Part shown: piece by piece, positions 563 to 30,198 of the stretch
How positions within the stretch are numbered: position 1 is the stretch's first letter
Layout of the letters: every line of letters begins with the position of its first letter
Assembly: GCA_000002445.1 (NCBI GenBank)
Contig: AE017150.2
Coordinates: 416,001-480,000 of the forward strand
Direction of reading: 5' to 3'
DNA from: Trypanosoma brucei
Taxonomy: Eukaryota
DNA length: 64,000 bases
The notes under the pieces: generated by a model
What the model was told of the DNA's origin: nothing
Database searches by the model: none
The model's input: the letters and a program-made list of their open reading frames with translations, nothing else
Made by a program: the position numbers and the translations under genes

Positions 563-2620
563 TTACTTGCACATATGGTCAAAAGAATTGGGATTGAGGC
601 ACTGCCAATATCCACCGTGCGTTTCTCGCACTTGTTGCACCAATTCCTCAGCTTGACACCACAACATTCGACTCCTCGGCAGCTTCGACCGCGATCCGTT
701 GCTTTCCAGCAGGGCCCGCATTACCGCTTCCGAGCACCGCGCCACATTTGACAAGTTATATCCTCCCTCAAGCACTACAACAAGTTTGGGGCACACAGCA
801 GCGAGGGCTTTCACAAGCAGATAATAACCAGAAGGTGTTACTTGCATGGAGCCAAGGAGATCCCTAGCAGCAGAATCGAAACCGCAGCTCACAAACACAA
901 CCTCTGGTTCAAACTCCCGCATCACCGGTAGTACCACGTCTAGGACAACTTGCAGATACTCCAAGTCTCCCATGTTATGGGTAGGCCATGGTATATTTAT
1001 GTTCTTTCCCTTCGCTTCTGGGTTGGCATCGCCCCCAACGCGATCCATATGCCCCGTGGAAGGATAAAATGGTCTCGGTTCGTTTGAAGAATCCTCATCA
1101 GAATAAGAATACCCCTCTGAGTCACCAGAGAGTTTTCCCGCCCTTTCCTGTGACTCAGACGATGTTGACGAGTCGCTTTCACTACCGCTACTACCTGATT
1201 CGGGGAATCTCGCAAGCTCCTCTGCGTTAACGCCGAAAATTCGAGCCAACTCGTCGTCCTGATTCGCCATTTCCTCCGCCAGTTTGTTGTAGTCCACAGG
1301 TTTGCGCTGTCTCCTACACGACGACTCTTTTTTTTCTTCATCATCCTGTGGTGACTCGTGTTTACACTCACCGCCAGTTGATTCCTCCTCCTTCACGGGA
1401 GACCTTTCATTCGGCACCGTACCACAAGCTAAACCTTCCGCTACTTCCTGATCAGTTTCCTTATTCCTCACGCTGTCGTCACCACCGCAGAGCTCCGGTT
1501 TCACATCCTCAATTGGGTCCATCAACGCGGCCAAGTCATCTAATTCCACGATGTTGTCCACTACAGTGGGGTTCTTCCGCAAGATATGCCCCCGTTTCGA
1601 ACCATGTTGGTGAATAGACACAACTACAACTGAGGGATCTTCGTAAAATATGTTTTCGGTACCATCGCAATGATGAACATCCCAATCAATCACAAGTACA
1701 CGCGGCTCTGCTGCGGTTGAAGCAGGTTCACAAGGGCCACCGGAGCTACGGGGAGAAGGTGCGGCGTTACCACCTTCTTGCAACTTCTTTAGTTCCCGCT
1801 GGGCCGCACGCACGGCAACTGCAACATTGTTGAAGAAACAAAATCCTGACGCCCTGTCACGTCCCGCATGGTGACCTGGTGGGCGAATCAATGCAAATGA
1901 ATTGCGCACCTCACCGCGGACGACACTCAGAGCAGCCGCTATTGCGCAACCGGCCGCAGCACGCGCCGCTCTAGATGTATTTTCATTTGCGTAGAGGTCC
2001 TCGCCCACATTGCAGCTCTCTCCAGGCTTGCGTAGCAGCGTAGCAACCTCTAGTTGGTCTACACTATCAATGTGCTCAGTCGAGTGCACAAGGCGCAATT
2101 CCCTTGTGCGAGCGGAGCGGTGATGCAAACGACGGCAGCATTCGAGAAGCCCAATCACCTCGAGGTGATCTAATGTTCGTTGGAGTCTTCCGGGGCGTTC
2201 GTAGTCTCCCGGATCGGTAGAGGCATGTAAAAGCGTAACTTCATCATAAGCGACACCTGTACCTTCAGCTTCAATTGCGGTGATGTCCAGAGTGGGGGTC
2301 ATAGTTGTCAGTGTAATTGAGGTTTCGTTTACCTCCGGAATCATCATATCGAGGATTGTTGGGAGGGGATCGATGGGTGGAAGTGCTGTGGGCAGCACCG
2401 AAGGCACTCCGTGTGCTTGACCCATCCAATTGTGAATATAAGTTTCAAGACGGTCCGTGCAGCGCCGGAAATTTGGATGTGACATTTCTTCATCATGATG
2501 CGGCTCACCACCTTCTTTCCTGGTCGCGACGGAAGATGATGAAGTTTCTTTTTTAACCTTTTTGTTCACCCGCTTGTCATCGTTCTCCACACTTTCTGCT
2601 TCACGCGTTTCTTTGCCCAT
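563..2620 (-). CDS. DAC3: Histone deacetylase, class-II-like zinc-dependent (685 aa) with a ~150-aa acidic/Ser-rich insertion inside the catalytic domain
   Basis: Complete HDAC motif set is present: RPPGHHAGRDRASGFCFFNNVAVA (HH pair), VIDWDVHHCDGTENIF (Asp/His zinc ligands), SCGFDSAARD (third zinc ligand Asp) and VLEGGYNLSNV (catalytic Tyr). The start codon is ATG at 2618-2620. The DAC3 assignment rests on size, class-II-like motifs and my unverified recollection of T. brucei chromosome 2 synteny; confidence in the DAC3 symbol specifically is about 0.55. Confidence 0.85.
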   Translation of the reverse strand: MGKETREAESVENDDKRVNKKVKKETSSSSVATRKEGGEPHHDEEMSHPNFRRCTDRLETYIHNWMGQAHGVPSVLPTALPPIDPLPTILDMMIPEVNETSITLTTMTPTLDITAIEAEGTGVAYDEVTLLHASTDPGDYERPGRLQRTLDHLEVIGLLECCRRLHHRSARTRELRLVHSTEHIDSVDQLEVATLLRKPGESCNVGEDLYANENTSRAARAAAGCAIAAALSVVRGEVRNSFALIRPPGHHAGRDRASGFCFFNNVAVAVRAAQRELKKLQEGGNAAPSPRSSGGPCEPASTAAEPRVLVIDWDVHHCDGTENIFYEDPSVVVVSIHQHGSKRGHILRKNPTVVDNIVELDDLAALMDPIEDVKPELCGGDDSVRNKETDQEVAEGLACGTVPNERSPVKEEESTGGECKHESPQDDEEKKESSCRRQRKPVDYNKLAEEMANQDDELARIFGVNAEELARFPESGSSGSESDSSTSSESQERAGKLSGDSEGYSYSDEDSSNEPRPFYPSTGHMDRVGGDANPEAKGKNINIPWPTHNMGDLEYLQVVLDVVLPVMREFEPEVVFVSCGFDSAARDLLGSMQVTPSGYYLLVKALAAVCPKLVVVLEGGYNLSNVARCSEAVMRALLESNGSRSKLPRSRMLWCQAEELVQQVRETHGGYWQCLNPNSFDHMCK

Positions 2621-3665: not shown

Positions 3666-4238
3666 TCAGGCTGCTGTGGCTTTTCCCAGTCCCTCTTCGC
3701 ATATCAGATCCATCGCATGTTTGAACACCTCCGCTCCAAATCGCCTCGTCACTTCAGATCCATAACCTGCAGGTGTACCCAACAGATCCGATTGATTTTC
3801 TCCTATAATTCCACATGCCACATAAACGGCAACACCTGAAGTAAACTCTCGCTCCAGCCTCCTCGAGAGCCGACGCGCGAGGGAATCTGCAAACACCGCC
3901 TGTGGATTGGGAGCCCCAACGCCTACTTCATGTTGTGCTTCTTTAAAACCAAGCTGTGGAAGAGCCGTATCGTCAACGAGTGTTGTAGCGGCACTGTCGC
4001 CTGAAACTCCACTAAAAGACACGGCGCAGGCCCCAAATGGTGGTGGTGGAGCGCTGAATCCCTCACGGGTCATGGCAATGTGAAACCAAAAACAACGACG
4101 GTTGAACGAAACCATCTGAAGTGTCACACAAGCGATGGGAACGCGACGCGGGGCATTTTCTTCCAATTCAAAAACATCATCCGCCGGCACTTCATGGGTG
4201 AAGGTAAAATGTCGTGTCGCTAAACTGGGGGCAGGCAT
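3666..4238 (-). CDS. Hypothetical protein, 190 aa, no recognisable motif
   Basis: ATG-initiated ORF in the same orientation as the surrounding transcription unit. A purine-rich tract on the plus strand (a minus-strand polypyrimidine tract) lies upstream at about 4420-4445. The sequence is non-repetitive. Confidence 0.5.
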   Translation of the reverse strand: MPAPSLATRHFTFTHEVPADDVFELEENAPRRVPIACVTLQMVSFNRRCFWFHIAMTREGFSAPPPPFGACAVSFSGVSGDSAATTLVDDTALPQLGFKEAQHEVGVGAPNPQAVFADSLARRLSRRLEREFTSGVAVYVACGIIGENQSDLLGTPAGYGSEVTRRFGAEVFKHAMDLICEEGLGKATAA

Positions 4239-4516: not shown

Positions 4517-7500
4517 TTACGGCATGGCCACCGTTGCCGTGGTTACGAAGGAAGGTAATGTTCGGGATCTCTCTTCATTTTTTTCACCGTCATTCCCCCG
4601 TCCTTCCATTTTGGCCCCCTCACCCTCAACTTCATGTGTTGCACCAATGCCAACACTTTCAGTACGAAGCATCAGGTCCATTTGCTTCTCAAAGACGCCT
4701 TGAACACCATGTGAGAAAGCGTGCGTTTCCGTCAACCACTGTGACAACCAATTTTCTACTTCATCCCCCTGTAAGACAAGGTGGTGCACCGGAGTATCTA
4801 ACGGAAAGTTGCTGATGTCAATATTTGGCTGCACTGCCGACGTCACCGATCCGTCCTCTCCTTGCAGCATCAGTTCACCAAGGGCATCGGTAACATAAAT
4901 TAGAGGAATACAACTGTTAAAACTATCAAGACTAAACTTAAACTCACGCTCGTTGCTGCTGGATGCCACGCTGGACCCATCCCCATTCTCATTACCTTCC
5001 GAATAACAAACGCTACTCATCATGCCTGCATCCTCAAGGATACACAACTGGACGTAATCGCTGAAACCGAGCACCACCGCATCCCCACCTCTGATGCTGC
5101 CTCCCTCTACCGCCACAGCATAGAGAGTACTAAAAGCCCCACGTGCTATGGATCGGCTCTTCGCTGCACCGATTGTGGTTTCATAGACAATTGGAAGTAA
5201 GGGGATAATACCGGCGCCGTCAGGTTGTGATGCATTCGAACCACGCTGACGGTTCACTGTCCTTATGGTAACGCTGTTCTGTTCTGCACTAATTACACGC
5301 TTCAGTTGTTCAACCCCGAGGTGGAAACGAGGCGTGCGATTCGTAGCAGCACGGTGACGCAGCCAGCCAAGCGAAAATTGGGTCAACATGCCATCCAAAC
5401 ATTGTAACAGCTTATCACCCTCCCCGGTAGTTTCCGGTAGACTTACCAGCTTTTCCTCAGGCTTCATTTCTGCCTCTTTCATTATAGATTTAATCCGCTG
5501 TCTTATGTGGCGCAACAGCCGCAGTGTTGTGAGTGCAGCCGTGCTCACACCCGCTCCCCGCAGCTCGGCGCGCCACGCCTCAACGACGTTACGGGCGTGA
5601 GCAAAGTTTTCCTCCCCACTCCAACCTCTGCTGCATCGCTGCAAGTCACGGTAGAACGCAAGCAGACGGAGAAAAAATGTGCACTGTGGTTCTACTTCCC
5701 GCTGTGGCTTAATGAGATCCAGGACAGTGTAAATAACCTCAGAGTCGCACTGTTGCAGCATGAGCTTAGCGGCGAGCAACTGCACTACACAGGAGGGCAT
5801 AACGAGTGGATCCAACTGAGAAAGACTAAAGTAGCGGGCCGCGTCATGTAGGGCACACTGCTCTGATAACAGTAATGCTGCTGAATTCTCCGAAACCTCA
5901 GCTAATCGAACATTCGGAGCGGCTAACTGATTGTAGAGCAGGACCGCCACGGGAGCGTTGCGAGCAGAGCTCGCAACGCTCAGCAGAGCAGCTGTCAGAC
6001 TGGAAGAGGTGCACACTTCTGCTGCTGATGACTGTTGCACCCGCGAGAAAAACATGTGCGCAGCTTCCATCTTAGCAATGGGGTCCATTGCAGCACGAGC
6101 CAAAGCATTCAAGGCGGCACAAGCTGCCTCACGTACAGTACACCATGTATCTCGGAAGTAACCAACATCGGTTTGCGAAGTGAGGAGCAGCACATTATTT
6201 TGCACAAAGGCATAATGTGCTGCATTGGCACCCACACACTGGGAGAGCGCAACTAATAGTTTTAACTTAGTAGCGGCTAAAGTTATCACCGTGTGGTCAC
6301 CAGCATCACTTGATTCGATAGGATCATTATTCCTGACGTCAGTTCCACTGCAACCCTCAGTAGCTGCACCGCACATCTCGTCACCGTTTAAGATACTATT
6401 ATTTTCGTTAGCGGAACTTTGGTCCATAGTTTGGGAACACTCTTCCGCCATCGCATTAAACTCTTCAAACAGTCTGCAGGCCGAGGTAAAGTCACCGCTG
6501 GTCCGGAACGCCAAAATCGCCAAACCCACGTCATTTCCCAAATCACAAACACGTTTTTTGTAGTCAACCCCGGTATCATTGCCACTACCACCTCCTGTGT
6601 ATTGCTTCGCCCTACCTTGCTGTTCAGCATAGAACGGAAGCAGCTTGTTAAGCACATCAACAGCCAACACGCCATCTTGAAGGACACTCACCAGTTGCAG
6701 TCTGGCGCGCAACTCGCTCATCATTTCGTACGAATCTTGAAGTTGTTGTCGGTGATTGCCAACTGAGTGGTGGAGCGGGAGCATATCCATTAGCTCATAA
6801 GCGCGATGCTTTTCTTCGCCAAGCGCCCACTGCAGCCGTCCCATCTCGCCCCGGTCGCTGAATGGTTCCCACCCACTGGTATAAGTTTCTTTAGCCTTGT
6901 CACCACTAGCCTTTTGCTTCTGCTGCTCCTGATGTGCTTCACGCCTATCCAAAAACTTTTGAAGCTTGGAGGCCTTCCATTGAATTCGCTCAGCCGCATT
7001 TTTTAATAAAATGGTGGCTGCCGCCGAGGGGACAACCATCTCACCCAACTTATTCCCGGCGCTGGAAACGGCATCAAGAACCTTCCGCAGCACAGTCACA
7101 GGAGGTATGTGGCAAGCTACGCCAGCCCGGCAGGCCTCAGTAAAAGTTGAAAAGTTATAGCGAAGTGCTTCCGGTTCTAAGGCGGACGAAGCAGGCGGCA
7201 ACGTCGTTGAGGCAATTGAAGAACATACAACATGTGCGTCACACGTGGAGGAGCCACAAGCCGTAGGCAACTGCTGCGTGCGCTGCTCCATGAGATCCAT
7301 AACGCCTAATTGTTCCAGCAGGGAGATATTTGCTGTGACCGGCTGGTCTATTGGGAAAACCACACCTCCCATATCATTGTTATTATTATTATTATTGATA
7401 TTATTGTTTCGGCTAACATCACCTCCACGCACGTCTCTTAGGAGTTGCTTGAAGAGTGCTTGTTTGGGATAGTTATGCTGGTGCCTGTTGTGTCGACTAC

Positions 7501-7636
7501 CAGCTGCCGCCGGCTCGTGCAGATTCTCAGTTTGGCTAAACATAAATGTGACCATACCAACAGAAAGGGCCCCGGTATGTGTTGCTGTCACTGGGAAGCG
7601 CACACGCCGTGACGTACAGCAGTGCCTCCTCCACAT
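4517..7636 (-). CDS. Hypothetical large protein, 1039 aa, mostly helical by composition, with an N-terminal poly-Asn run
   Basis: Long ATG-initiated ORF on the unit strand with a polypyrimidine tract upstream (plus 7696-7735). The asparagine run NNNINNNNNNND is encoded by an (AAT/ATT)n stretch at about 7375-7410. I did not recognise any domain. Confidence 0.7.
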   Translation of the reverse strand: MWRRHCCTSRRVRFPVTATHTGALSVGMVTFMFSQTENLHEPAAAGSRHNRHQHNYPKQALFKQLLRDVRGGDVSRNNNINNNNNNNDMGGVVFPIDQPVTANISLLEQLGVMDLMEQRTQQLPTACGSSTCDAHVVCSSIASTTLPPASSALEPEALRYNFSTFTEACRAGVACHIPPVTVLRKVLDAVSSAGNKLGEMVVPSAAATILLKNAAERIQWKASKLQKFLDRREAHQEQQKQKASGDKAKETYTSGWEPFSDRGEMGRLQWALGEEKHRAYELMDMLPLHHSVGNHRQQLQDSYEMMSELRARLQLVSVLQDGVLAVDVLNKLLPFYAEQQGRAKQYTGGGSGNDTGVDYKKRVCDLGNDVGLAILAFRTSGDFTSACRLFEEFNAMAEECSQTMDQSSANENNSILNGDEMCGAATEGCSGTDVRNNDPIESSDAGDHTVITLAATKLKLLVALSQCVGANAAHYAFVQNNVLLLTSQTDVGYFRDTWCTVREAACAALNALARAAMDPIAKMEAAHMFFSRVQQSSAAEVCTSSSLTAALLSVASSARNAPVAVLLYNQLAAPNVRLAEVSENSAALLLSEQCALHDAARYFSLSQLDPLVMPSCVVQLLAAKLMLQQCDSEVIYTVLDLIKPQREVEPQCTFFLRLLAFYRDLQRCSRGWSGEENFAHARNVVEAWRAELRGAGVSTAALTTLRLLRHIRQRIKSIMKEAEMKPEEKLVSLPETTGEGDKLLQCLDGMLTQFSLGWLRHRAATNRTPRFHLGVEQLKRVISAEQNSVTIRTVNRQRGSNASQPDGAGIIPLLPIVYETTIGAAKSRSIARGAFSTLYAVAVEGGSIRGGDAVVLGFSDYVQLCILEDAGMMSSVCYSEGNENGDGSSVASSSNEREFKFSLDSFNSCIPLIYVTDALGELMLQGEDGSVTSAVQPNIDISNFPLDTPVHHLVLQGDEVENWLSQWLTETHAFSHGVQGVFEKQMDLMLRTESVGIGATHEVEGEGAKMEGRGNDGEKNEERSRTLPSFVTTATVAMP

Positions 7637-7848: not shown

Positions 7849-7912
<64 letters not shown>
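7849..7912. repeat. Compound microsatellite (AC)n(AT)n
   Basis: Direct reading: acacacac...atatatat across about 64 nt in an inter-CDS spacer. Confidence 0.95.
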
Positions 7913-8197: not shown

Positions 8198-9139
8198 TTA
8201 GTTTCGCTGCCGAGAGAGCGGTTCCTCTTCTTCCCCAATCAGCTCAGCCGTAACGGCAGTTGGGTTTACGACATACTTCACTGCCCCGCCCCGAGTTGTC
8301 ACGACACGGCAGACAGCGTTCCCACAAGTGGAGCAACATCCCTCTAGAAGCGCCGGATCGCTGCGTTTGTTCACATCCCTCAAACACGTCTCTCGCCATG
8401 TCTTCGGCTTCAACAGTTCACACCGACCGCTGCGTGTCGTGCGGGTCATTTCCCCCTCAATGGGAAGCCCTCGCGCTGCAAGTGTTGCCGTAAGCGGTGA
8501 CGAAATAAATTCCCTTGAAGAACTGAGATCCCCACGGTTGGAGTCGGCTGCCATCGCGCCCCTACCACGGCCCACGGCACTGCGCTGTAGGAGTCCACGC
8601 AGCTGAAGCGCTTTTGCACTTGCCGGCGCGGTAAAGCACGGCCAACCATCTTTATGTGACCCGAGAGTGCTGGCTACTGTGAAGTCATTGCTGCTAAACA
8701 GCGTGGAACTGCACTCCCTGCAATTATATGAAACAACATATCGTTCGGCATCCGTACCATTCACTGGCATTCGATGAAGTCTTTCCATAACTGCGGTTTC
8801 TCCGCCAACTGGTGTGAAGGGCGGATCCAATACGAGAGGAGGGACATCTGCTAATGTTGGGGGGCCACTTCCTTTCGCACACGGAAGCCTTTTGTGATGT
8901 TGTTCTCGCTGCTGCTGCTGCTGCCGAGCACATTCGCTCCCCTGTGGCGTGTGGCAGACATCATTAGTAAGCGAAGAAGTGTCGGCTCCACGTTTTATAT
9001 GCCTTTCCCGAGCGCCCGCGAGCCACAACATGGACTGAGGAATGGGCCCTGTATGTATGCGACGGCATTTGCTGACAGCTCGGTATTTGACCGCTAGCTG
9101 CACTGTACGTCTAAACGTGTTTTGTAGATGTGAATGCAT
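8198..9139 (-). CDS. Zinc-ribbon protein with a degenerate MsrB/SelR-like (Mss4-like fold) domain, probably catalytically inactive
   Basis: The first half carries the MsrB signature Y-x-C-x-x-C...LFSS...GWPCF (YNCRECSSTLFSS....GWPCFTAP). A second Cys pair (CCSTCGNAVC) is followed by KYVVNPTAV where MsrB has RYC(I/V)NSA(A/S)L, so the catalytic Cys is replaced by Val and the HLGHVF histidines are also lost. The track ORF starts at TTG (9167-9169), so I trimmed it to the first in-frame ATG at 9139. Confidence 0.5.
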   Translation of the reverse strand: MHSHLQNTFRRTVQLAVKYRAVSKCRRIHTGPIPQSMLWLAGARERHIKRGADTSSLTNDVCHTPQGSECARQQQQQREQHHKRLPCAKGSGPPTLADVPPLVLDPPFTPVGGETAVMERLHRMPVNGTDAERYVVSYNCRECSSTLFSSNDFTVASTLGSHKDGWPCFTAPASAKALQLRGLLQRSAVGRGRGAMAADSNRGDLSSSREFISSPLTATLAARGLPIEGEMTRTTRSGRCELLKPKTWRETCLRDVNKRSDPALLEGCCSTCGNAVCRVVTTRGGAVKYVVNPTAVTAELIGEEEEPLSRQRN

Positions 9140-9862
9140 AATGAAATGCAGTGCTGCCTCAGTAGGCAAATATTTTCAAACCTTTCAGTCTTCCTCTGTG
9201 AATAATTTTGGCTTCAAATCAACCACCATCTATAAATGTCATTAAGTGTGGCGTGAAGAAGAAAAAGAGAACAGCAGTTGAGAACCACAAGGCAGGGCTC
9301 AAGCAAAATAGGGGAAAAAGAGAGAGATGCCTTATCGGAATGACCCGCATCATTGTGCATCGGGGCAGAGGCACTGCAAGGTTTTTGTCTTGTCTTAACT
9401 TTTGCGCAGGGTTGAGTAAAAGGCTACAAAAGCATCTCAATCGCAGTTGAAGCCATTCCACTTTTTCTTTTCATTTAGCTTTCTGTCGGATGAGGAGCTT
9501 ATACACGATGCCCGCCTTCCTTTTCTTTTTTTCTTTTCTTCTTTTCTGTTATTCCTCCTAGAGGTTTTAGAGATGTTACACTACTTAGTCGCGACTGGGT
9601 CAATTCTTTATAGAAATTTGTTATACGAAAGACAAGGGAATATAAATTCCCTGCAACAACTCACCTCAACTCCGAGTGACATGGCAACCTACCAATACGT
9701 AGTCACATTGCCGCACACCAACTCAAGCAGAAAAAAAATCAGAAAGAGTGAAAGAGTGTAAGAGAAAAAGAAAACAAAAAAAAACACAGAGCTCAATCTG
9801 AAGGATGCTAGTCCCCTCCTCACCATTTCTTTACCCTTCAATATCTACCTTACCACCCCGTC

Positions 9863-11698: not shown

Positions 11699-14600
11699 CT
11701 ACGCTGCGTAATGTTGCCTCGCAAACTTCAGCATATTGCAGAAGCGCACCTTCATCTCCGTTGAGAAGCGCCCCGGCTGCTGTTGCAGAGCTGATATAAA
11801 GCCCGTCGCTTCACTTTCACCCACCAACGGTGAAAATGTTTCATATAACATCACGGAAAGTGAAGCGTCTGCGGGGCCAAGTTTATTCATGAGTGCCTTT
11901 AGCAGGAGCCCAGTCTCGCCGATGAAAAGAAGGCTCTTCGCGTCCTTGAGGTCGAAGGTAGGGGAAAACATCCGAGCAAATACAACGCGCAAAGCATCAT
12001 TTAGCATGAACTTCATCCATGCTTCACCAGCAGCTCCAGTGCTTCCTTGACTACAGTCGTTGCGAAGAGGGTGGCGGCCAGCGCCGCTGCTTTCATTGTT
12101 CGTACAACATGGTTCAACGGTGGCTGTGACCTTCGTCATGATTTGAAGCGCAATCTTCGGTAGTTCCGTTTCTCCAGGAAGTTGAATTGCCGTGAGAAGC
12201 TGAACTAACAAGGCATTGAGATTGACAGACGGGAGAAAAAGAATGACGTGCGCACACTGTGCTTGCGCAGCACCATGAACGACGGCAAATAGCTGTCGAT
12301 ACACATCTCGCTGTTCCCGCATGGTTTCCGACACAATATCTGATTGATCATCCTCAGCGGAGAGTTCACCCACGGCACTAACTTTCTCGAGCAGAGGCGG
12401 CATAAGTTGCGAGAGTATTTCTGCCACGCAGGGGCCACTTCGGTGAATAAACTGAAGAAGGAACCGTAGGAGTTTGATCAACTCTTGTACCGCTTCCATC
12501 CACATCAACCAGTTGCTAGTGTACACAGGAACATACACCTTCATGGAGTCGAAGGGAAGTAGATGAGCCATTTGTGTGAAGTACTGCACTATACGGTCTC
12601 GTACGGATGGAGACGCGTGCCATGTACTGAATACTTCCATTACATCGGATGTAACGTTATGAAATACCTCAGCCACCACTGCCTCACCGGTGGATTCCGA
12701 AACCGAATTACCGTCTGTAGCATTATTAATTTTAATACTTTCGCTACATGCGTTGCTTCCGCTGCCGCTACTGTTTTTATTAGGGGAGGTATAAGTTGCG
12801 TTATTTACTGCGGCGCCACTACCGCTACTACCACCACCACCACCACCACGGAGCCCCTTCACCAGGGCTGTGAGAAATGATATCCCGTCCGCCACCGCCT
12901 CGGCGCAAGCGATGTTACCTACGACGGAGGCATCCCGAAGGTTTTGCCTCACGACTTGAACGACATGAAGCGTCATGGCCGTTCCTTCCGTTGCACCAGC
13001 AGCGGGTAACTGCGGCACTGTGCTCAGTAAAATTCCAATGGCCTCGTATAAATCCCGCCGGTTGCTGGGTAGGAGGTACTCCGTAGCGGCGAGGATACGT
13101 TGAAGTGCAGTAATGATATCTTGCACATGTGGCACCAAGGATGACTTGAGCACCTGCACGAGGTGACCAAATAAGTAACAAATTCGGGCGCGCACGTTCG
13201 GACTCGAGTTCATAACGCCATGTGGCATAAGCAGCAGTCGTTGAAGAAGTAGTGGTATGTAATTCCTATGGTACGTGAAAAAGACGCAGTAACGGTCCAA
13301 AACCTCGAAATAGCTTACGTGTACAACAGAGCAGGTATGCTGTGGAAGGTGCTCTGAGGTGAGCACAGCGAATATGAGTTGAGCAAACTCATTGGAGCTG
13401 TCCCGGAGTTGCTCCATGCGAAAGGATTCACCTAATTCATACAAGTAGCGCAGTGCAGCCTCAGCCTCTTCCGGGCTGCTAGCCGTATTGCTGCTGCCGC
13501 CTACAGCCGCACTAATCCCTTCACAGTTGAGGCCTCTCCCATTGCTAATGTTATCAATTCCATGCGACTTTAAATCCTTGTCCTGCCCCATCACTCCGGT
13601 CTGACCGAAACCTTCAGCAGAAGTGGTCGTTGGATCGGAGGCGCTACTAGCGGCTCGCGCAACGACTTCCCGAAGATGCGGCATTACAACTGCAGGATGA
13701 TCCCTAAACAACAGCCGCATTATGTTGTGCATCTGCTTGCGGCGGTCGATGATGTCATCCATCCAAAAAGGTTCCTCATTCTCTGCCACGCCTCCTATGA
13801 CCGTGTGGTCGTAAAGTGCACGAAGGAGCTGTGCTGCCTGCTCCTCACGCAGAGCAGAGGACTTGATATACATTTGGATGAATGGAATAAGTGTATCCAC
13901 AACAACGTCGTGACGAATGCTTAGCAGTCGCAACAATTCCGGAACAACAACATCTAACGCTACTTGAACCTCACCAAGGAACTCCACAGACAGGTGACCA
14001 TCAGGAACGAAATATGAGTGTTGTTGCTGTTGGCGCCCCTGAAAGTTCCTGCAATCCACGTTGGTGCAATCGATGCCACCTTCTGCATCTAAGCTTTCCG
14101 TGCTCCTCACACAGCTGAGTGAGGGTGGAGACGTAGCTGTTTCCGCGCTGCTGCTATTGTGGCTCATATTCGCATGGTTTCCACGAGCGCCACTCACTCC
14201 ACCCCAACTGGCGTAGTTGTTGCGGTTGCTAGTGATGTGTTCATAAAGCGACAGGAACTGCATAGACACCTCCCGCACCAGTTTCGCCACCGATTCTGTA
14301 AAGTTCACATCTTCATCACTCTCTGGCGGTGCAGGTACTAAACTTACAACTCGTGGTACCGCGTCCACGACGTTGAGCTTACGCAGTGACTCTAACTTCG
14401 CAGCGGATACTTGCTTCTTTTCTACTAACCCACACAGACACTCACATGCAGCACCGCGAACGGTATCTGCCGAGAGCATAAAGTACAGCAGGTTGATCCA
14501 CTCCGCGGTAAAGAAGAGGGAGATGTCGACCCATTCAATGTAGGTTTGCACGATGCTCATGCAAATATTTGCCAGTTCAGGCACCCGCTGTCGGCACTCA

Positions 14601-15358
14601 CATAACGTTGCATGCCAAAATGCAGTAGCACGAGGAATGACATGTTCTCGCATGGCATCCTTTAACTCCATGTCGCGCGCTCTTTGATCGCGGCTTCTAT
14701 CACTTCGCTCGCGCACTGAGACGACGCGTTCATCAATATATTCAAACAGCCGCAATATGTACAAAGTTACAGAATCGCGAATATGTTGCTGAAGGGATGC
14801 GCCACGGTTGATGAGCTCAAATGCATCATCAAAGAATGAACGCCAGCGAGACGGGAAGAACTCTTGCAATCCAGCCACCATCATTTGGGCGTGCTTATTC
14901 GCAAGGTAGTCGATAGACTGCCGTTGCCGCGTGCCTGTGGCAACACCGCTCAGAACGGTGCAGTTAACCGTAGAAGAGGAAGTTGCCGTAAGGCCTATTA
15001 ACGACGCACCTGACACTGAGGTTGGCGCGTTGGATGAAAAAAAGTAGCGGTAGATAAATGAGAAGAGTGTTTTGTAGAGTTCCTCCGCCTTGGTATCATC
15101 AACATCACGCGCAATGCGAGGAAGATGATGCATGATGGTGTTGAATGCCCAAAAACAGCACGTGTCCTGCACCGGCTCGCTATTGATGATACCAAATGCT
15201 AAGTTAAGTCCATCGGCTGTGACACGCAGTTCCATGAGATACTGCTCTGCCTCTTGCCGTTGCTGCTGCGTTACACCAGGCTGATACGTGTGGGTGAGCT
15301 CCATCGCCTGCGTGAAACTCTCCATTGAGAACACAATAGGGGAGCTCAGTTGCGACAT
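11699..15358 (-). CDS. Importin-beta superfamily nuclear transport receptor, exportin-like (exportin-t/exportin-5-like), 1219 aa
   Basis: The N-terminal region resembles the importin-beta N-terminal (IBN_N) module (QQRQEAEQYLMELR...NLAFGII...CCFWAFNTI), followed by about 1100 aa of HEAT-like helical repeats. The size fits exportins. Starts with ATG at 15356-15358. Confidence 0.55.
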   Translation of the reverse strand: MSQLSSPIVFSMESFTQAMELTHTYQPGVTQQQRQEAEQYLMELRVTADGLNLAFGIINSEPVQDTCCFWAFNTIMHHLPRIARDVDDTKAEELYKTLFSFIYRYFFSSNAPTSVSGASLIGLTATSSSTVNCTVLSGVATGTRQRQSIDYLANKHAQMMVAGLQEFFPSRWRSFFDDAFELINRGASLQQHIRDSVTLYILRLFEYIDERVVSVRERSDRSRDQRARDMELKDAMREHVIPRATAFWHATLCECRQRVPELANICMSIVQTYIEWVDISLFFTAEWINLLYFMLSADTVRGAACECLCGLVEKKQVSAAKLESLRKLNVVDAVPRVVSLVPAPPESDEDVNFTESVAKLVREVSMQFLSLYEHITSNRNNYASWGGVSGARGNHANMSHNSSSAETATSPPSLSCVRSTESLDAEGGIDCTNVDCRNFQGRQQQQHSYFVPDGHLSVEFLGEVQVALDVVVPELLRLLSIRHDVVVDTLIPFIQMYIKSSALREEQAAQLLRALYDHTVIGGVAENEEPFWMDDIIDRRKQMHNIMRLLFRDHPAVVMPHLREVVARAASSASDPTTTSAEGFGQTGVMGQDKDLKSHGIDNISNGRGLNCEGISAAVGGSSNTASSPEEAEAALRYLYELGESFRMEQLRDSSNEFAQLIFAVLTSEHLPQHTCSVVHVSYFEVLDRYCVFFTYHRNYIPLLLQRLLLMPHGVMNSSPNVRARICYLFGHLVQVLKSSLVPHVQDIITALQRILAATEYLLPSNRRDLYEAIGILLSTVPQLPAAGATEGTAMTLHVVQVVRQNLRDASVVGNIACAEAVADGISFLTALVKGLRGGGGGGSSGSGAAVNNATYTSPNKNSSGSGSNACSESIKINNATDGNSVSESTGEAVVAEVFHNVTSDVMEVFSTWHASPSVRDRIVQYFTQMAHLLPFDSMKVYVPVYTSNWLMWMEAVQELIKLLRFLLQFIHRSGPCVAEILSQLMPPLLEKVSAVGELSAEDDQSDIVSETMREQRDVYRQLFAVVHGAAQAQCAHVILFLPSVNLNALLVQLLTAIQLPGETELPKIALQIMTKVTATVEPCCTNNESSGAGRHPLRNDCSQGSTGAAGEAWMKFMLNDALRVVFARMFSPTFDLKDAKSLLFIGETGLLLKALMNKLGPADASLSVMLYETFSPLVGESEATGFISALQQQPGRFSTEMKVRFCNMLKFARQHYAA

Positions 15359-17364: not shown

Positions 17365-20300
17365 TCACAGCCAAGGTGACCAGCCGTGAAACATTTGGGC
17401 CAACAGTTCCGTGTTCTGCGCTGTTTGGAGTAACTTCTGTACATGCGTGCGCACGCTGAGCAATTCGCCAGATTCGTAGCCTTGAATTTTTTCCATTACA
17501 CGGGAAAGTACCCGCTCTGCATCGGCGTATGTTGGCTTCTTTCGGTGCACACCCACGCCTTGCTGCCGTGCTGAGTTGGCGCCACTACCGTTACTGTCCT
17601 GTTCATCTTGTTGAGCATTCTGCTGCTGCTGCTGCTGCTGTTGCGGGGGTATAATTGAAACTGCCCAACGAGAAAGCGGGTCATGCGCACAGGCTGCGAG
17701 AATTGTGGTAAAAAACTCCTTCTGCCCGCGAAGTAGTTGAAGTGCGGCTTGGCAGTGGTGGCGGAACGGTCCCTCCGTCCCCTGCACACCAAAGCCATCA
17801 ACAATATTACGGGTTAGTCTAAAGGGAACCAACTCCGGCACGTGCAACAACTTTCCTTGATCAAAGGCGAAACCAAGGTCAATGTGCACCAACTCAGCGC
17901 GACCCACGTGGAGGAGTAAATTGTTGGCATGACGGTCGCCAAGGCCGAGTATGTAGCCGAGCATGCTTGATGCCGCCACACTACGGGTGTACGCTTCCCG
18001 CCGCTGCAACCACTCCTGCGGTGTAAAGAAATGCTCAAGGAAGAAATAATGGAGGGCGGGACTGAACTCTGCATAGAGGGAGAGTAGCACAGCGTGCTTT
18101 TGCGTTTTGCTTGCCTCATTGAGGCGCGCTCGACACACTTTCGAGGTGATTTCAGTGGGAAAGTACCGCTCATGAGCACCGGTAGGGTTCTTACTGCTGC
18201 TACTGTTTAAGTAACGGTCCAGTGGTATGGTACCATCCACCCACTCAATCAACCCAACGGTTGGGGCAAGGGGTACAACATTGTAGGTATATATGTGGAG
18301 TTGCCGCGTTAAGGGGTGCTTCTCAAACAAGGCATTTGATAAGCCAAACACTTGCTGAATTAGAGAATCTTGACGAAGATCATCCTGAGATTTAAGCAAC
18401 TGCTGGACTGTGCGACCATCACTTAACACACAGCGGAGCACCTTTGGAACGTTAATCCCCCCAGGCGTTCTGAAAGTGCTCTTGTACTTCATAACTCGCG
18501 GCACTTGAGCCCGTTGCTCATCTTGCTCGTGCCTCAGTAGGGACGCTGACAGCGCAGAGTTAGTCGCGGGAACAGTCAGCGTGGGAGGCGGGATAGAAAG
18601 ATCTTGCAGCGCGTCGCTGATAAGCATAAAAGTTTTCGGAATATTGCACTCCACATTGTCAGCAGCATCTGCGCGGTGAAAGGCCAGTTGTATATAGGCT
18701 TCGGAAAGGCTCTCTGCATCAGTGATAAACTTCCTTCGGCACTCAAATGCAGAGGCGTCCTCTGCGTCATTACTTGTTTTCTTACTGCTGCCGGTGCTCT
18801 TACTTTTCCCCCAAGGTTGTGCACTCGGTTCTTTAAGGGAAGTTAGAATACGTCTGGCGATAGCAACTTTTTCCTCATCTACCACATGCACAACTCCACC
18901 ACTGGAGGCACCTTTACCTCCGGTGTCTCCCACACCTGGGCCAAACACATGTCCATTCGCAAGCGCAAGAAGCGGCCATACGGCACGTAGTGGCTGCTCC
19001 GTTGCAACTCGGTGCACCAATGTTTCAAGGTTTTTATTATCTAAAGACGTGCCCAGTTGCGCCACCAGCTGTGAGTAAAGGGGAAGAAACTTGTGCAGAG
19101 GCGTGTTGCTTATGGCCTTCGATATGACGTTGTCCGTAGCGGGAGAGGTGTCTTTTCGCACATAGCTTTCATCTTGATGTAACCACAGTGACACAAAACC
19201 AAACACCGCGAGGATGTCATTATCATCACCATCATGTCCACTCAGTTGCAAGAACCGCGAGTAGCCATTCAGTGCACTTCGCCTGTACAGAGCGTAAGAT
19301 TCCGCTTCCTCCACAAACTCCCTCTCATCACAAGCATGCTCTGCAATGAGGCCTGAAATACGGCGCCGCAAAAGATTCTTCTCCTCTCTGCTCACCCCAG
19401 ATTTGGATAGTTGCTCTTGTTTTTGCTGCAGCTCGGTGCGTGTGTGGATCAAGCTCTCCATACTTTTTTGCATTGTGCGATAATTGTAACTGCGTAGCCG
19501 CTCGGCAATGTCACGTGTGAGAGTATGACATAACCTGGCTAGTTGCAGGCTGCAATATCCAGTCCGGTCGTCAATGGCGCATCGAGTAAAGAAGGGATCA
19601 CGCACTATCTGTGAAAGGGGAACCAGTCGAGCCTCGGTAACCCAAGCAACGAGCTGCAAAACGACAGGTGGCATCAGCGAAGGATTCTTTGGAAATGATA
19701 GTCCAGGCACACCCACAGCAAAAGGAGAAAGGAACGAAAACTGTGGATCTCCAGAAGCTCGTACCTGCGGAGAAGCTGGCGACGGTGCTGCAATGTTCTG
19801 AAGAATAGCAATTGCGCGATGTGGGTAGCCGCAAGCAAACTCCGCACGGGCATGTACGAGAGCTATAAGAACGGAGGCTGGTAAACCACATGAGCTCGTG
19901 GCGGCCTGCAGTACGGGCTTCAGGTTGCAATCCGGGCCGTTCGAGCCATGTGCCTCAACACTACCACCGCCAACACCGCCATCAACCACTGTTGAGAGCT
20001 CTGCGTAGGACGAAACCCATTGCCGAACCAAAAGCGGTTTGTTCGAGCACAGTGCTCGCTCACTGCATACTTCCAGATGCGTAAGCCACCACTGTGGTTG
20101 TTTACAGACAACACAGAGTTGCTGTTGCACGCTGTCCAGAAGTTGAAGTTCGTCATACGGCAGACGCACGTGCGCGAGGGAAGTGCCAACCCATCGTGGA
20201 GGTCTTGCGGAACCCACTCGAATTTCATGCTTACCGCAGTCCTCAATTTGCTGCAAAGCTTCCGCCCGCAACATTATATACCGCCAGTTCGAGGGATTAA

Positions 20301-23300
20301 GCTGTCGAAGCAGATGCTGCTGCGCCTGCGCACACCAACGGTGGGCGTCATGTCGATCGCCACGCCTCACACACTGTAGGGCATGATAAATGCCTTCGTC
20401 GACCGTAACAGTGGTCGGCAGCAACAAATCATGGAGTTTCCGCTGTTGCTGATAGCCATCTTCTTGTAGAAACCTCAAGTCCCACCGCCCACTCCGCCAG
20501 AGAGCACCGGCTAACGCAGCCCGCAACTGCATACACTCATTTTCATGTCTTTCTTCTTCCTCAGTTGCGTCCTGGACTGGTTGTTGAATATGATCATTAC
20601 TTCCTGTAACAACGCCAAAAAATGAGGTGTGAAACTTCCTCTTGAGAGCGGAAGCCAGTAGGTGCAGGGCGGTCCCCGGATCCCCAAGATGAAGCAGTGC
20701 GTTCGCCTTCTCAATCACAATACGTGCATCCAAAATGCTGGTCTGGTAATCACGGCTCGAGTTGTTGGAAACAGGGTGCTCCAGGCGGTCAAGCAAACAT
20801 AGTACAGCCTGCCAGTTACCTCGGCTCTTCTCCTGCTCAATTCGACGCATGGGGTGTTGCAGAAGAAACGCCTCTTCCCATGGCGTTGTGTGTTCTTCAG
20901 CTGCGGCACCCGTTTGGGCGGGCATGGCTAACCTTGATGCTGCCCCCGTGCCGCCCACGGCGCTGGCGCTTGTTAGAGTGGGTTTGGAACTTGCGCTTGC
21001 TGAAGCAGGGAGGTCGTCATAGTTGCCCTCACGAAGACGCAGAGCCTCCTTCACATCCACAAGAATGGCATGAACTGCAGACCGGAAATTGAAGAGACGT
21101 AGGGCTAACTCCGCCTGTGCCACATCGGCCCGCAACTGCCGCGGTCGACCATCGGAAGCCCCACGTCGGCACACATCAGGATTAACAGACGGGAAGAGTA
21201 CTGAGGTCTCCTTTTGCTTGTGTGCATCAGCGGATAAACCGCGCGTAGATGCAGCAGAAATATCAGGGACAGTGGACGGAATTCCCTTTCGTCGACCAAG
21301 GAGTGACTCGCCGCTGAGCTCTGTGAATAGAACAGCCAAATGAGGTTCATGACAAGCCGCAGCGGCTGCGGCTAGGGTAAGTGGGTCAATGTCTGAAAGC
21401 CAATATGAATCCTTCATGTCATTTATCTCCGGTGGATCACCGTATTCACTACGCACGTACGGCGGGAATGTTATACCTCCCGCCACCTCCGCAGCGCCAC
21501 GCCCCTCCGGCAATGCAAATTGTCCGCGTTGATTGTAATCTGATGCGTCCGACCGTACACCGCGGCTTCGAACTGCTGTCATGATCACAGATCGGCAGAT
21601 ATTCAATGCGCGCAGGAATAGGCGGGTGGTATGTGGAAACTGTTGCGCTCGCTTGAATAGACACTCCTCCAGTCGACCGGACCACGTAGCCCGCTCCTCG
21701 CGTTGTACTGAGGTCTCTTTCAGTAGTATAACATGAAGCAACGTTATGGGAAGGAATCCTTCAATAAACCACGTAAGACTGCTATTTCCCCCGGTGATGC
21801 CCTTTGGGGTGATTTGCACGGGCAGTAACATACAGTTCAGCACCGTGGAGATGGTGCCCAAACGCTCTTGCAGCTTGTATTGGCGAATGATTGCTATGAG
21901 AAACAAACGCAGAAAACGTGGTTCATCTTCATGCAGCTGGAGTGCGTCCCACACCAACGAACTTCTGAGGGAGTTAAGTTGTTCGACTGCCCCGTCAGTA
22001 CGAACTGCGCTGATGTTTCGTGGAATGCTGCTCAGCTCCCGGCAAAATACCGCCAAATCCCCGAGACTGACAAACGAGTTCGTCCACTCCAAGTGTTGAT
22101 TCCCCCTGTTATGACGAGTCTGCCGCTGTTCCTCTCCGTCTTTTTCAAATAATTGTAGTGTCCGTCTAATGAGTGTGGCACTCCCTCCAACTTTTCGGCG
22201 TGACCTGACCGGTGCCTCATCCGCATCGTTGGCATCTGACAAAGCCTCCACTTTGACGGTAGCTCCTTCACTAAATGGATCACCCTCATTTATGCTTTTG
22301 CCATCCTCTTTTTTGATGCTGGTGAGCCACCCACGAAGTGTAGTGGATGCAATGTGGGCATTACATGCATCGGCATCGAATGAAAGTCGGTAGAGTTGCT
22401 CAAGGTGCTGACGGTAGACGTGATGTAGAGCCTCATCCAGTGAGCGTTGCTGCAACAGGCTGTGGATGTCTGCTGTCGGAGAAAATAATGACTCCACACA
22501 ACTCTCGCATCCAGACTCGATGAAGCACCAGCAAATTGCACGAAGAAGATGAAACGCACTCAACTGAGCATCACGGTTTGTTGTCTGAAACACTGTGACA
22601 GGCGCCGCAACTGCCACTGGAGAGACACCTACAGCTACAGTGGTCTGTGCAGATTGTCCAGCGGTATCAGAACACACCACTGTGAGCAAATGTTGCACTG
22701 CTCGACAACACGTGTTGTAGGCAACGCTGGCTGTTTTAATGGTGACATTTTCCGTGGAGTTGGGCACTCTCTGCGAACCCGCCCCGGAGAGCCGCAGCCG
22801 CTGTTGTTCGTTAAGTCTGTACAGGCGAATGAGTGCCACGAAAGCCTCCCTGTCACGATCCACAGCAGATGCGACATCATCATAAAAAGAGGAGGCTGGT
22901 GCTCCAGAGACGAGAATGACGTTCTCAAGTTGCGATAGCACGCGCGCTACACGACGTGCCGGCCCCTTTGCGCTAACCCCGGAGCTGTTGGCCATGTCTG
23001 CTTGGTCCTGTTGACGAACCTCGTCTTGCTGTTGTTCGACACCAATACTTTTTGACACGGCCACTTCCTCCTCTTCATTATCAACGTTTATGAACTCAAC
23101 AGGTGTATCGGCACAACTGCCCTGCGACGCCCTCCGCGAGCGTTTCATGGCGTCCCATGTTGACGACACCACTCGCGACTCTTCTGTCAACGATGACATA
23201 ATGGTGGAGATGAACGCTTCATCTGCTGCAGCTCCGATACAAACTGCCGAGGGTGCGGTTGCGGGCGTAGTGACAACAACTGACCACACATGTAGCAGCA

Positions 23301-26300
23301 CCTCGCATACCACAGGGCGTACATCCGGGCATGTCATTAGCATATTACCACACATCCGCAAAACTGTGTGCAACATGTGAGGCACTTGTTGGAGCAAATC
23401 ACGACTCCACCACTCCCCCACAATATCTCTGAACATCCGCACCAGAAGCAGACGACGCGCCCCACGGTTTAGGTCCTGTGTGAGACAGACGTACAGTCGC
23501 TGGAGTAACACATATGCATGGTCGCCACCGTCGTTTGAGAAGAATGCATGCACTGCTTGGTGATCAAACGCTGAAGGCGGGTGGGAACCACGCGATAGCT
23601 CTCGCATTTCTGTCATCGCCTGTTGTGTGTTCGAAGAGGCCACGTCACCTATTGACTCACAGAGCAACTTAACTGCCCAGTGAATCTGCTTAAGTTCGAT
23701 GTACGGTGAGAGGGTGCCGACGAGATCTACAAAACGGCACAGAATACCATCAGCATTATAACGCATAAGTGAAGCAAAACGGTGGGAAAGTGCGCTTCGC
23801 AGCCACTCCAATGCCACTCGAGCAGCACATCCTGCTTCTTCCAACTTCGCGTCTTCGTCGGGTTCCTCGACACATTTCCGGGTGTCTTTCAGCCCCATAA
23901 AGCTTTGGTGACCGCATCTGACACGCGCTCCAGTCAATTGTGACCATTCGACACCCATTCCACTCTTCTCGGATAAGGAGGCAAACAGGAGTAACCGTGC
24001 CACTACATCAGGGAAGTGTGCAACGATGCATTCGATAAGTAACTGCGGCGTGCACTCAGGATCAGGTTCTTGTCCAACCGCTTCGTCACCCTTCTCTCCC
24101 CCCTCAATTGGAGTTTTCTCTCGCTGTTGTTGTCGATGGTGGAAGATAGCTAACCGCCAGAGGAGGCTACTGGGCCGCATGAATACGGCACCTGCAGCCT
24201 CGTCCTCCACAGCTTCGCGTGCTTGAACGCTATTCGAACCACGGCTTGAGCAGCATAATAAAACGATCGGCAACAACAACGGCATAAAAGCTGCCCAAAG
24301 CTGCGATATAGAGCTAAAGCCAAAGCACGTAATAGGCAATGCCTCTAGCGGGTGACCGAAGCTCCACAACCAATCAAATAAAAGCCGTTCACGGTGGTGG
24401 TGGCACAACTGTTGAGCACTCATCTTACTTCCCTCTCCAATCGCCAATTCTAATTCAGCTGCGTCACTTCCTAGCAGAGTACCTACATCGTCAGCGACGC
24501 CGCCGCCCCCTACCCTAAGTCTGGCGTACTCACCAATCAACTGGAGACATTCGAGAATCAAATCCTTATGCATGAAGCCGTGCGTGGCCCAACATTCCAG
24601 TAATTTGCACACAACTCGGGGCTCCATCAACGGCACCGCCCTTGCCGCCTCAGCTACCGCCCGTAGACTTGTCGCACAGCTCATACCGCTCGTAGAGTTC
24701 ATTCCCTCGCGAGCGCTGGCAATCATATCGCGCATCACAGCTCCGGCTCGATCGCTAAACCGGCTGAACAGAAAGCGAACCTGCAGAGCTGTGTGCTGCC
24801 GCACGGCGTAAGGGGCATCGGGAGAGAAGAAGGAAAATATGTACCGACCGAGCTTTTCTGCAACTCGAGCGTCACAGAGGAAAAGAAGACCATATATAGC
24901 TGATATGACGGCACACTGTCGTTGGGGAGTAAGAGGTGGGATGTCGCTCTGCGCAGAGTCGCTCACACGTTCAACAAAGCGCTTCAGCATTTGCCCTTCC
25001 TCACACAGTAACTCTTTCTCCGGTTCGTCGACTCCGACACCCGTAGTCGATAACCGATACTCATTTTGCTGGCCTTCGCACCTTTCGGCGGAGTGAGCGG
25101 GCGCTATGGCATAACGAGCTGCTACCGTTGCAGTCCCCTTTGTGTGCAACGCATAGTAGCCGAATGTTGCGAATATGCTTTCACACATGGAGTGGGCATA
25201 GCGGGCGAAGAGAGTTTCGAGCAGCGCAAGAAGCGCATTTCGCGCGTTCATATCTCCCCATAAACCACGCAGCAACTGGAGCAGATACGCCAAACAGTCA
25301 ACGGACGCCAGAACGAAGGGCACGAATGGGTGGGGTTTCAATATCGCCCGGGTATCTGCTCCCTCTTCAGCAGCGTCGTTGCGGCCAGAGATTCTGTCAA
25401 GAGGTAAAATGAGCTCATTCTTCACAAGAATGTCCACAATTACAGCTGTTACGTCCGAGGGGTCCACCAAAGGTTCAGCGGCGGCCAGCATCAAACGCTT
25501 GTGGCGCACCAGCGTTAGAAATTCACCCAGAACTCTGCAGCTGAGTCGCATGGTGGCCTGAACGATTATTGTGCTGTCTGTGGTCGTTATTTCCGTCTGT
25601 TTCCATGAAGCAAGTCGGGATATGCCTTCATTAAGCAGTCGACGGCATGTGGCACCGACAAACCTGAGAATAGTTTGGCGCGGTTCCCATAGTGCTAGAG
25701 ACCGTGAAAGAAGCTCTGTGCCGACATCATGGAGTAGGAGCAGCAGCGCCCGAAGCACCGCACGAGCTTGCGTGAGCGAATCGCGAAGCAGACGGGTGGT
25801 GAGGTAATGACACAACCACATTACAGCGTAGTAGATTCGACCAGGGGCCGTGGGAAGACGTTGAAAAACCGAAGCAGGTTGTTCAAATAACTGCTGTGGT
25901 GTAAAATCCAAAAGCACACGAAGATCTTCCGACTCACTGTCGCCATTGTCACCACTATTAAGTCTGTCTGAGCACCCTCCAGTCAGGTTGGCGTTGTCAT
26001 CAGACTTTGCGCTTGCGACAACCCCTGCACCTGTGCACTCCCCCGGTTGCCGGCTACATTTTCCTTCAGGAAGGTGCCATATCCCAAGCCGGTATAAGCG
26101 CAGAATAAAATGAAGAACCTGAATGGAATGGATGCACAACTTGCGGTGAATCAGTGCCACGGTTTCTTCACACATGCCTTGTTGTTGTTGGTACGCAGAT
26201 GGTTCAGTGCCAACGATCCCAGCAGACGTGGTCGCAATTTTTGCACTGCACGCCATCTCAGTTACAGCACGAACAACTTCAGCAGAAAGGGCTTCCATTA

Positions 26301-29300: not shown

Positions 29301-30198
29301 CAAAGAGAAACAGATGTAACAAAAGTTGCGCGAATTCCTGACCACAGACTGGGGCCAAAACCTCCGACTGTAAAACCTCGAGCGCGCAACTCACAAATCC
29401 GTTGAGGGGAACGGCGTTCTTCCACAGAAGTGGCAATACTGCGTGGTTTGGAGGCACTGCCCAAATATGGTGCGATGCCTCTCCCCAACCCTCACCACCT
29501 CCAACTGGTGCCACGTGCTGCGGTGCCGATTTGAAGGATGAAGATGTGAAATTGTCCCTCCCATCTCCTCCATGATGATGTTTTGCCGTGTCGAAGCCGG
29601 ATGACATGGAATGCGTATCACCGCCCCCACCACCCACGGAGCTGCTGCCCGTCCCAATAAGCATAGAGGAAAAGGAAGAGGAAGAGGAATGGGCAGCGGT
29701 TTGTTGTTGTTGTTGAACTACCGACGCAGGCAGGTTATGATGGACGGTCTCAATTAGCGCTCGCCATGGACGGGCGAAGTCGGTGCGCAGTTTTCTTCCT
29801 CTATTTTCTGAATAAGCGCTAGTTCCTGACTCGTCCTCAGCAATGTTCACACGGCCCAATGCCGCCATTTGCCGACGCTTTGTTACCGCCTCGTTATACT
29901 GCTGGAGTGCAGGGCGAAGGACACTATTCATCACCACGAAAAGAATGTTGTTTGCCACATGTTGACCGAATAAATCCTGAACACACATGCAACTCTGTTC
30001 CACCGTGTTGTCAAGGAACGTGCGAAGATCTTGCAGAAACTTGGGTGCCTCCCGTATAGTTGCCCCTTGAAGATCATTGCAGATCGTTGTAAGGCTCCTC
30101 TTAAGTGCCTCCTTGTCTAATGAAATACTCCGCTGCGACACTGCCGGATGCCGTCCCCTAAACAATCCAAGCATTGAGGCATCTTGTGAGGCTGACAT
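17365..30198 (-). CDS. ATM: ATM-type phosphatidylinositol-3-kinase-related kinase (PIKK), 4277 aa: helical FAT-like region, PI3K/PI4K catalytic domain and C-terminal FATC
   Basis: The catalytic segment [63 protein letters not shown] closely parallels the ATM catalytic/activation-loop region (LGLGDRH..N.L.........HIDLG.AFEQGK.LP.PE.VPFRLTRDIVDGMG..G.EG.FR). The FATC ending is ...MFHGWSPWL. The track ORF starts at GTG, so I trimmed it to the first ATG at 30196-30198 (MSASQDAS...). DNA-PKcs was considered but the DIVDG(M/F)G and LG.AF.QGK motifs fit ATM better. Confidence 0.85.
   Translation of the reverse strand: [4277 protein letters not shown]
17620..17643 (-). repeat. (CTG)7 on plus, equivalent to (CAG)n on the coding strand, encoding a polyQ run inside the ATM CDS
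   Basis: ctgctgctgctgctgctgctgttg encodes QQQQQQQQ within the ...[19 protein letters not shown]... segment between the kinase domain and FATC. Confidence 0.95.

Follow-up and report, generated by a model that had tools for sequence, protein, structure and literature searches.

What has become of a protein that carries the zinc knuckles of methionine-R-sulfoxide reductase B (MsrB) and has lost the residues with which that enzyme works? The question is raised by Tb927.2.2220 of Trypanosoma brucei, a gene of chromosome 2 situated in a stretch of 64,000 nucleotides (GenBank assembly GCA_000002445.1, contig AE017150.2, positions 416,001 to 480,000 of the forward strand), which is called the window hereafter and in whose coordinates all positions are given. 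The coding sequence is complete, occupies 8198..9139 on the minus strand, as do all features of the gene described below, and specifies 313 amino acids followed by a stop codon; the product is identical to that of T. b. brucei TREU927 (XP_951532.1, UniProt Q586K2). All sources that name this protein label it “hypothetical protein”, and none assigns a precomputed Pfam domain to it. The best explanation of the data as a whole, to which we attach a probability of about 0.65, is a mitochondrial pseudoenzyme derived from MsrB that would serve as a binding or scaffold module.

The protein is homologous to MsrB and shares its fold. Taken alone, the T. brucei sequence matched the Pfam SelR profile with E = 0.019 (15.4 bits), and phmmer with the whole protein found no PDB match at E values up to 10. 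Two family profiles were built, A2 from 11 Trypanosoma-level homologues and A3 from an alignment of 25 sequences. With A2, the ten best matches in the PDB were all MsrBs, from E = 4.7e-4 down to E = 0.12, and the second aligned stretch placed LEGCCxxCGkavcrvv...kyvvNptA on VETSCSQCGAHLGHIF...RYCINSAA of human MSRB3. With A3, the top 12 matches among 177,635 PDB sequences were again all MsrBs, the best at E = 1.8e-7. An exhaustive hidden Markov model search of 1.84 billion representative proteins returned 34 at E ≤ 1e-3, among them remoter kinetoplastid members and, at E = 7e-5, a single canonical tandem MsrB (P0043). Pairwise alignment with hhalign related the family to E. coli MsrB with 95.6% probability (E = 1.3e-8) and to one half of the tandem protein with 96.3%; the C-terminal half of the family was by itself colinear with E. 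coli MsrB (E = 3.9e-4) and placed Val290 on the catalytic Cys. When the 25 members were scanned individually against Pfam, SelR (PF01641) was the sole recurrent family, found in 22 of them with a best E value of 1.3e-7. The Pfam scan, the PDB profile search and hhalign all led to SelR/MsrB and to no unrelated family.

Structure prediction was done with AlphaFold2. A run on 11 Trypanosoma sequences reached a predicted local distance difference test score (pLDDT) of 55 and was not used for the fold search; the 25-sequence alignment gave a mean pLDDT of 77.8, 100 residues of the beta-tent core scoring at least 90, and the resulting model has the beta-tent fold of MsrB. MsrBs occupied the first nine ranks in Foldseek (best E = 1.4e-4, target-normalised TM 0.61). 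In the fold comparison, MsrBs obtained values of 11.8, 11.2 and 11.0, followed by Mis18 (9.7 and 9.5), the mitoribosomal SelR-domain protein of Tetrahymena (6Z1P_BL, 9.4), bacterial CULT (8.9), YPEL5 (8.0) and RIG-I-like C-terminal domains (about 7). Because both comparisons ranked MsrBs first, the model identifies the protein as a side branch of MsrB, inside the beta-tent fold (Mss4-like in SCOP) but outside Yippee and CULT, with the beta-tent families taken as in Lupas et al. 2015 (PMC4287342). The initial annotation, made from the letters of the DNA, had proposed an Mss4-like-fold pseudoenzyme; homology, fold model and residue losses support that proposal and specify MsrB as the branch.

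The MsrB/SelR-like domain, including its insertion, extends over residues 104-301 (8237..8830). It had been given as 8240-8743, the minus-strand translation of which reads RYVVSYNCRECSSTLFSS...GWPCF...EGCCSTCGNAVCRVV...KYVVNPTAVTAEL and does contain the MsrB N-terminal signature, GWPCF and the second CxxC that had been reported there; the extent was too short, since hhalign puts the motif LDPPFT (8813..8830) on TEPPFT(GEY) of MsrB and the domain hence starts about 30 codons upstream, at DPPFTPxxGE. Conservation was counted in an alignment of 35 homologues. The first zinc knuckle, CREC (C140 and C143; 8711..8722), aligns with the first CxxC of MsrB; the second, CSTC (C269 and C272; 8324..8335), is directly preceded by an extra cysteine, Cys268. 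Each of the four zinc-site cysteines is present in 35/35 sequences, so that the claim of a complete set of structural zinc ligands holds for the family. The Tyr before the first knuckle and the Phe of LF are likewise found in all 35, and the GWP motif is close to invariant (W 34, G 33 and P 34 of 35). Its T. brucei version, GWPCF (8633..8647), contains Trp166, the counterpart of the Trp that binds the substrate methyl group in MsrB. Residues of the PPFT/GE motif are kept in 27-33 of the 35 homologues, the individual counts for LDPPFT being D 30, P 31, P 33, F 27 and T 31. With both CxxC motifs and the Trp of GWP(S/A)F, the protein resembles the zinc-containing subclass of MsrB.

The catalytic residues are gone. 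The motif KYVVNP (8261..8278) is the counterpart of the catalytic RYC(I/V)NS, with Val in place of Cys, as both the MSRB3 alignment and that of the C-terminal half show and as the initial annotation had read it. Not one of the 35 homologues has Cys at this position; Val occupies it in 26 and Ala, Ile or another residue in the others, where the column entries of six sequences are misaligned as their extracted segments ended before the last strand, the full sequences showing Val or Ile. The strand AVCRVV (8300..8317) takes the place of HLGHVF according to the hmmsearch alignment to MSRB3 and hhalign of the C-terminal half, and the reported absence of the HLGH histidines applies to the whole family: at the first active-site His position Ala was counted in 16 and Pro in 8 of 35 sequences (Ala in T. 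brucei), at the second Arg in 24 (also in T. brucei), and His at neither. The resolving-Cys position is S/G/T in 30 homologues and Cys in one, with Asp in T. brucei and Ser in most orthologues. Compared with MsrB (PF01641; E. coli 6SYM, human MSRB3 6Q9V), Tb927.2.2220 therefore has Val for the catalytic Cys and neither the His pair nor the resolving Cys. MsrB chemistry needs a nucleophilic Cys or Sec aided by a His pair; because nucleophile and His pair are missing from every member, reductase activity is very unlikely, and judging from these replacements we regard catalytic inactivity as highly probable.

New cysteines have been acquired. Cys277, at the position of MsrB Gly102, is nearly invariant (32/35). 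Position 268 holds Cys in 24 homologues and His in 6, and Cys252 (8384..8386), which lies in a motif of the insertion, is found in 24. In many sequences devoid of Cys252, a Cys is found instead shortly after the last strand, three residues behind NPSxV. Two sequences have no Cys277 and a visible C-terminus: P0033 is also devoid of the C-terminal Cys, which in P0040 is present but lies one residue later.

Unlike MsrB, the family possesses, beside the extra Cys at 252, 268 and 277, a conserved insertion of 50-80 amino acids before the second CxxC. In T. brucei it comprises residues 185-259 (8363..8587), as delimited by the alignments, and contains a long predicted helix, a low-complexity stretch that is variable, and two motifs, the conserved RGLxxEGxM and TWRExCLRDxNxRxDP with Cys252; it is conserved and mostly basic. 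A widened distance between the CxxC pairs had been noticed before, as about 128 residues instead of about 45; the exact figures are 129 in T. brucei (C140/C143 to C269/C272) and 49 in E. coli MsrB. The excess amounts to some 75-80 amino acids, somewhat above the 70 or so that had been estimated. Orthologues of the T. cruzi clade and the T. theileri group have an excess of only about 50-55, because they are devoid of a segment of about 25 residues common only to T. brucei and T. vivax. This segment (…AMAADSNRGDLSSSREFISSP…; 8480..8560, residues ~194-220) is of low complexity and of similar length in T. vivax; position 197 within it is A or E among Trypanozoon strains. An origin of the insertion from a degenerate second MsrB half was considered and rejected, as hhalign against the C-terminal half of the family, E. 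coli MsrB and both halves of P0043 gave probabilities of 0.05-14% with trivial overlap only. In the distant bodonid-like homologues P0022 and P0024-P0027 the insertion carries a second motif of the type KYVTTAS / FVSRS, resembling the last strand of the family; hhalign gave nothing significant for an internal repeat behind it. It can be added that the upstream start of the domain, the extra conserved cysteines, the larger size of the insertion and the basic, acid-free N-terminus described below had escaped the initial annotation.

The family is at least kinetoplastid-wide, and a few metagenomic members may lie outside this group. Named orthologues are found in T. vivax, T. cruzi, T. rangeli, T. 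conorhini, T. theileri and T. melophagium, in Leishmania major, L. donovani and L. tarentolae, and in Leptomonas pyrrhocoris, Bodo saltans and Trypanoplasma borreli; all are “hypothetical”, and a precomputed Pfam domain is attached to none. Four other Trypanozoon sequences, T. b. gambiense and T. equiperdum among them, differ from the window protein at just 2-4 residues; the variable positions are 27, 133, 197, 250 and 285, and no motif residue is among them.

A mitochondrial location of the protein is likely. Its first 40 residues include seven K/R and no D/E, and a basic, acid-poor N-terminus was seen in 18 other homologues, that is in all those checked. Both TargetP and MitoFates are positive for Tb927.2.2220 in Supplementary Data 2a of Peikert et al. 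2017. The N-terminal region, residues 1-45 (9005..9139), is on its composition and these predictions a probable mitochondrial targeting signal. The gene belongs to the mitochondrial reference set of Peikert et al. 2017 by way of its TriTrypDB ‘mitochondri’ annotation, and in their whole-cell experiment with stable isotope labelling by amino acids in cell culture the protein, represented by 2 peptides, decreased to 0.57-fold (p = 0.014) after RNA interference against ATOM40, the import pore. The Leptomonas orthologue is annotated ‘putative mitochondrial’. The supplements of the TrypTag paper, the Zikova 2017 mitoproteome, a 2026 kinetoplast DNA screen and a kinetoplast-protein preprint yielded no localisation or function data on Tb927.2.2220.

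We thus envisage a protein that is encoded in the nucleus, probably enters the mitochondrion by import, and is in its C-terminal two thirds a diverged paralogue of MsrB. The beta-tent fold, the apical four-Cys zinc site, the Trp loop of GWP and the N-terminal PPFT motif have been kept. The zinc site would join both sheets of the tent; the former substrate groove would have the PPFT motif, the Trp of GWP and Asn292 along its walls. Loss of the nucleophilic Cys and of both active-site His, the second of which has given way to Arg, would preclude reduction of methionine sulfoxide by the sulfenic-acid mechanism of MsrB. The product would be a pseudoenzyme, apparently under selection throughout Kinetoplastea, and its most likely role would be binding or scaffolding, as a module stabilised by zinc and working through the former active-site face. 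The surface holding a partner might then consist of the groove remnant (Trp166, Arg278 and Asn292), the basic insertion and Cys252, Cys268 and Cys277. A module of this kind fits because the zinc site and the groove-lining elements stay invariant, together with the Arg replacement and the basic insertion, as in non-catalytic relatives of the beta-tent fold; like Yippee/Mis18 and the CULT domain of cereblon (PMC4287342), the protein would combine a zinc-bearing beta-tent with non-catalytic binding through the pocket equivalent to the substrate site of MsrB. We infer both the zinc binding and the binding role, as well as what any partner might be, and the binding role itself we place at even odds.

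Several observations weigh against this explanation. The T. brucei sequence by itself stays below the gathering threshold of Pfam SelR (15.4-16.5 bits across scans, as against 24.9). Tb927.2.2220 was not flagged in the ATOM40-dependent importome of Peikert et al., where the measurement relies on 2 peptides only, and it is unmarked in the column of their reference table that records the published mitochondrial proteome. The insertion was modelled at low confidence (pLDDT 45-67), so that its structure is uncertain and the proposed binding surface speculative. Finally, the nearly invariant new Cys277 beside the former active site leaves room for thiol-based chemistry.

This last point leads to the strongest of the rival explanations, which is nevertheless improbable: the protein could be redox- or metal-active through other residues, with Cys252, Cys268 and Cys277 forming either a redox-switch disulfide or another site, for a metal or Fe-S, and act as a thiol or metal sensor or carrier instead of an inert scaffold. 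The exchange of Cys for His at 268 is typical of a metal ligand, most members have 9-13 cysteines in the domain, and the Cys patterns partly compensate each other, loss of Cys252 often going along with a Cys after the NPSxV strand. Profile positions 153-184 also gave a weak, non-significant match (E = 0.32) to the [2Fe-2S] region of phthalate dioxygenase reductase. However, the joint presence of Cys252 and Cys268 coincides with one clade and may be due to shared descent only, and the insertion that bears Cys252 is the poorly modelled part of the protein. We know of no MsrB that has a catalytic residue at positions 252, 268 or 277.

Slightly less probable is an MsrB-derived reader or sensor, in which the Trp pocket would recognise Met or Met sulfoxide on a mitochondrial client, or in which a second Cys/His metal or redox site (Cys252, Cys/His268, Cys277) would operate. 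If this were true, oxidation or metal state would be coupled to some mitochondrial process peculiar to kinetoplastids, for example translation or RNA processing, in parallel to the independent recruitment of the SelR protein mS81 into the ciliate mitoribosome.

The same protein offers an attractive precedent for another reading, that Tb927.2.2220 belongs to the mitochondrial translation or RNA machinery as a structural or an assembly component, like mS81, which is located in the body extension of the small mitoribosomal subunit in Tetrahymena, or is an RNA binder like the C-terminal domain of RIG-I. We consider this just as doubtful as the reader or sensor. The family profile has no significant sequence match to mS81 of Tetrahymena thermophila (6Z1P chain BL); the similarity is one of fold only. 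Neither the whole protein nor the two profiles, which include Leishmania-type sequences, matched any PDB chain other than MsrBs. To our knowledge, the PDB holds structures of T. brucei and Leishmania mitoribosomes and of assembly intermediates, and because of this Tb927.2.2220 is not a modelled component of the kinetoplastid mitoribosome structures. The T. brucei domain is moreover near neutral (isoelectric point 7.5), which argues against an RNA-related or mitoribosomal role, and the gene is unmarked in the ‘Mitochondrial Ribosomes’, ‘RNA-editing’ and ‘MRB1’ columns of the Peikert reference table.

Membership in the Yippee/Mis18 or the CULT (cereblon) branch, instead of descent from MsrB, is very improbable: these proteins share the zinc-bearing fold, but the Pfam scan of the 25 members gave no match to Yippee-Mis18 (PF03226), GFA or Mss4, and the three-tryptophan aromatic cage of CULT is absent. 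That the protein is an active MsrB whose catalytic Cys disappeared through a sequence error or strain variant in the window can be dismissed, as its overall MsrB similarity is all that speaks for it, whereas the window agrees with the TREU927 reference, Trypanozoon differences spare the motif residues, the alignment finds 35 of 35 orthologous and more distant sequences without catalytic Cys and without either active-site His, thereby excluding a local error, and a passage in PMC6400530 ascribes a separate canonical MsrB to trypanosome mitochondria.

With regard to this enzyme, the same passage, which cites Guerrero et al. 2017, describes it as active, and it is tryparedoxin-dependent. The two proteins occur in the same organism, probably in the same organelle, and share the ancestral fold, but Tb927.2.2220 has none of the catalytic residues. 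It is an additional paralogue and not the reductase of the organelle.

The identity of the gene required some care. The reading frame listed for the locus, 8198..9169, opens with TTG, ten codons ahead of the annotated ATG (MHSHLQ) at 9139, and the latter is the true start. In the main text of the open searchable literature, the identifier Tb927.2.2220 was encountered only as a quantitative PCR control. The primers published under this name (PMC9200285) match exactly 4116..4235 on the minus strand, inside an open reading frame (ORF; 3666..4238) two genes downstream of the real Tb927.2.2220. Neighbour numbering and these primers pointed to 3666..4238 as the gene; this was overruled by Supplementary Data 3 of Peikert et al. 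2017, where Q586K2 (34.2 kDa) equals Tb927.2.2220 and the neighbour Q586K1 (113 kDa) equals Tb927.2.2210, and gene identity is fixed because the table gives both UniProt identifiers and masses. The amplicon comes from a different ORF, probably Tb927.2.2200 and possibly the 3' untranslated region of Tb927.2.2210.

All large ORFs of the window are on the minus strand. Tb927.2.2210 (1039 amino acids; 4517..7636) adjoins Tb927.2.2220, from which it is separated by an intergenic region with a short (TA)n tract at about 7900..7912; its product has no Pfam domain and contains the Asn run NNNINNNNNNN. It was flagged in the ATOM40-dependent importome and is known in the literature as a mitochondrial membrane protein and as a yeast two-hybrid prey of SF3a60. 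Other neighbours are a histone deacetylase (563..2620) and exportin-t, Tb927.2.2240 (11699..15358). SF3a66, Tb927.2.2270, is probably the ORF of 229 amino acids at 31296..31985, the size of which fits the published 26.9 kDa. Between the latter two lies an ORF of 4279 amino acids (17365..30204), probably the ATM/PIKK-family kinase Tb927.2.2260, on the basis of its position and of papers that cite Tb927.2.2260 in PIKK/PI3K-related contexts.

As it stands, the finding provides neither a drug target nor a change of mechanism. The assignment of the MsrB fold to a so far hypothetical protein, and the loss of catalysis suggested next to an invariant zinc site and Trp loop, lead to specific and cheap experiments. 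Tb927.2.2220 would add a lineage-wide case in which an antioxidant repair enzyme has become a mitochondrial protein without catalysis, and together with mS81 of Tetrahymena it hints at a repeated recruitment of the MsrB fold in the mitochondria of protists.
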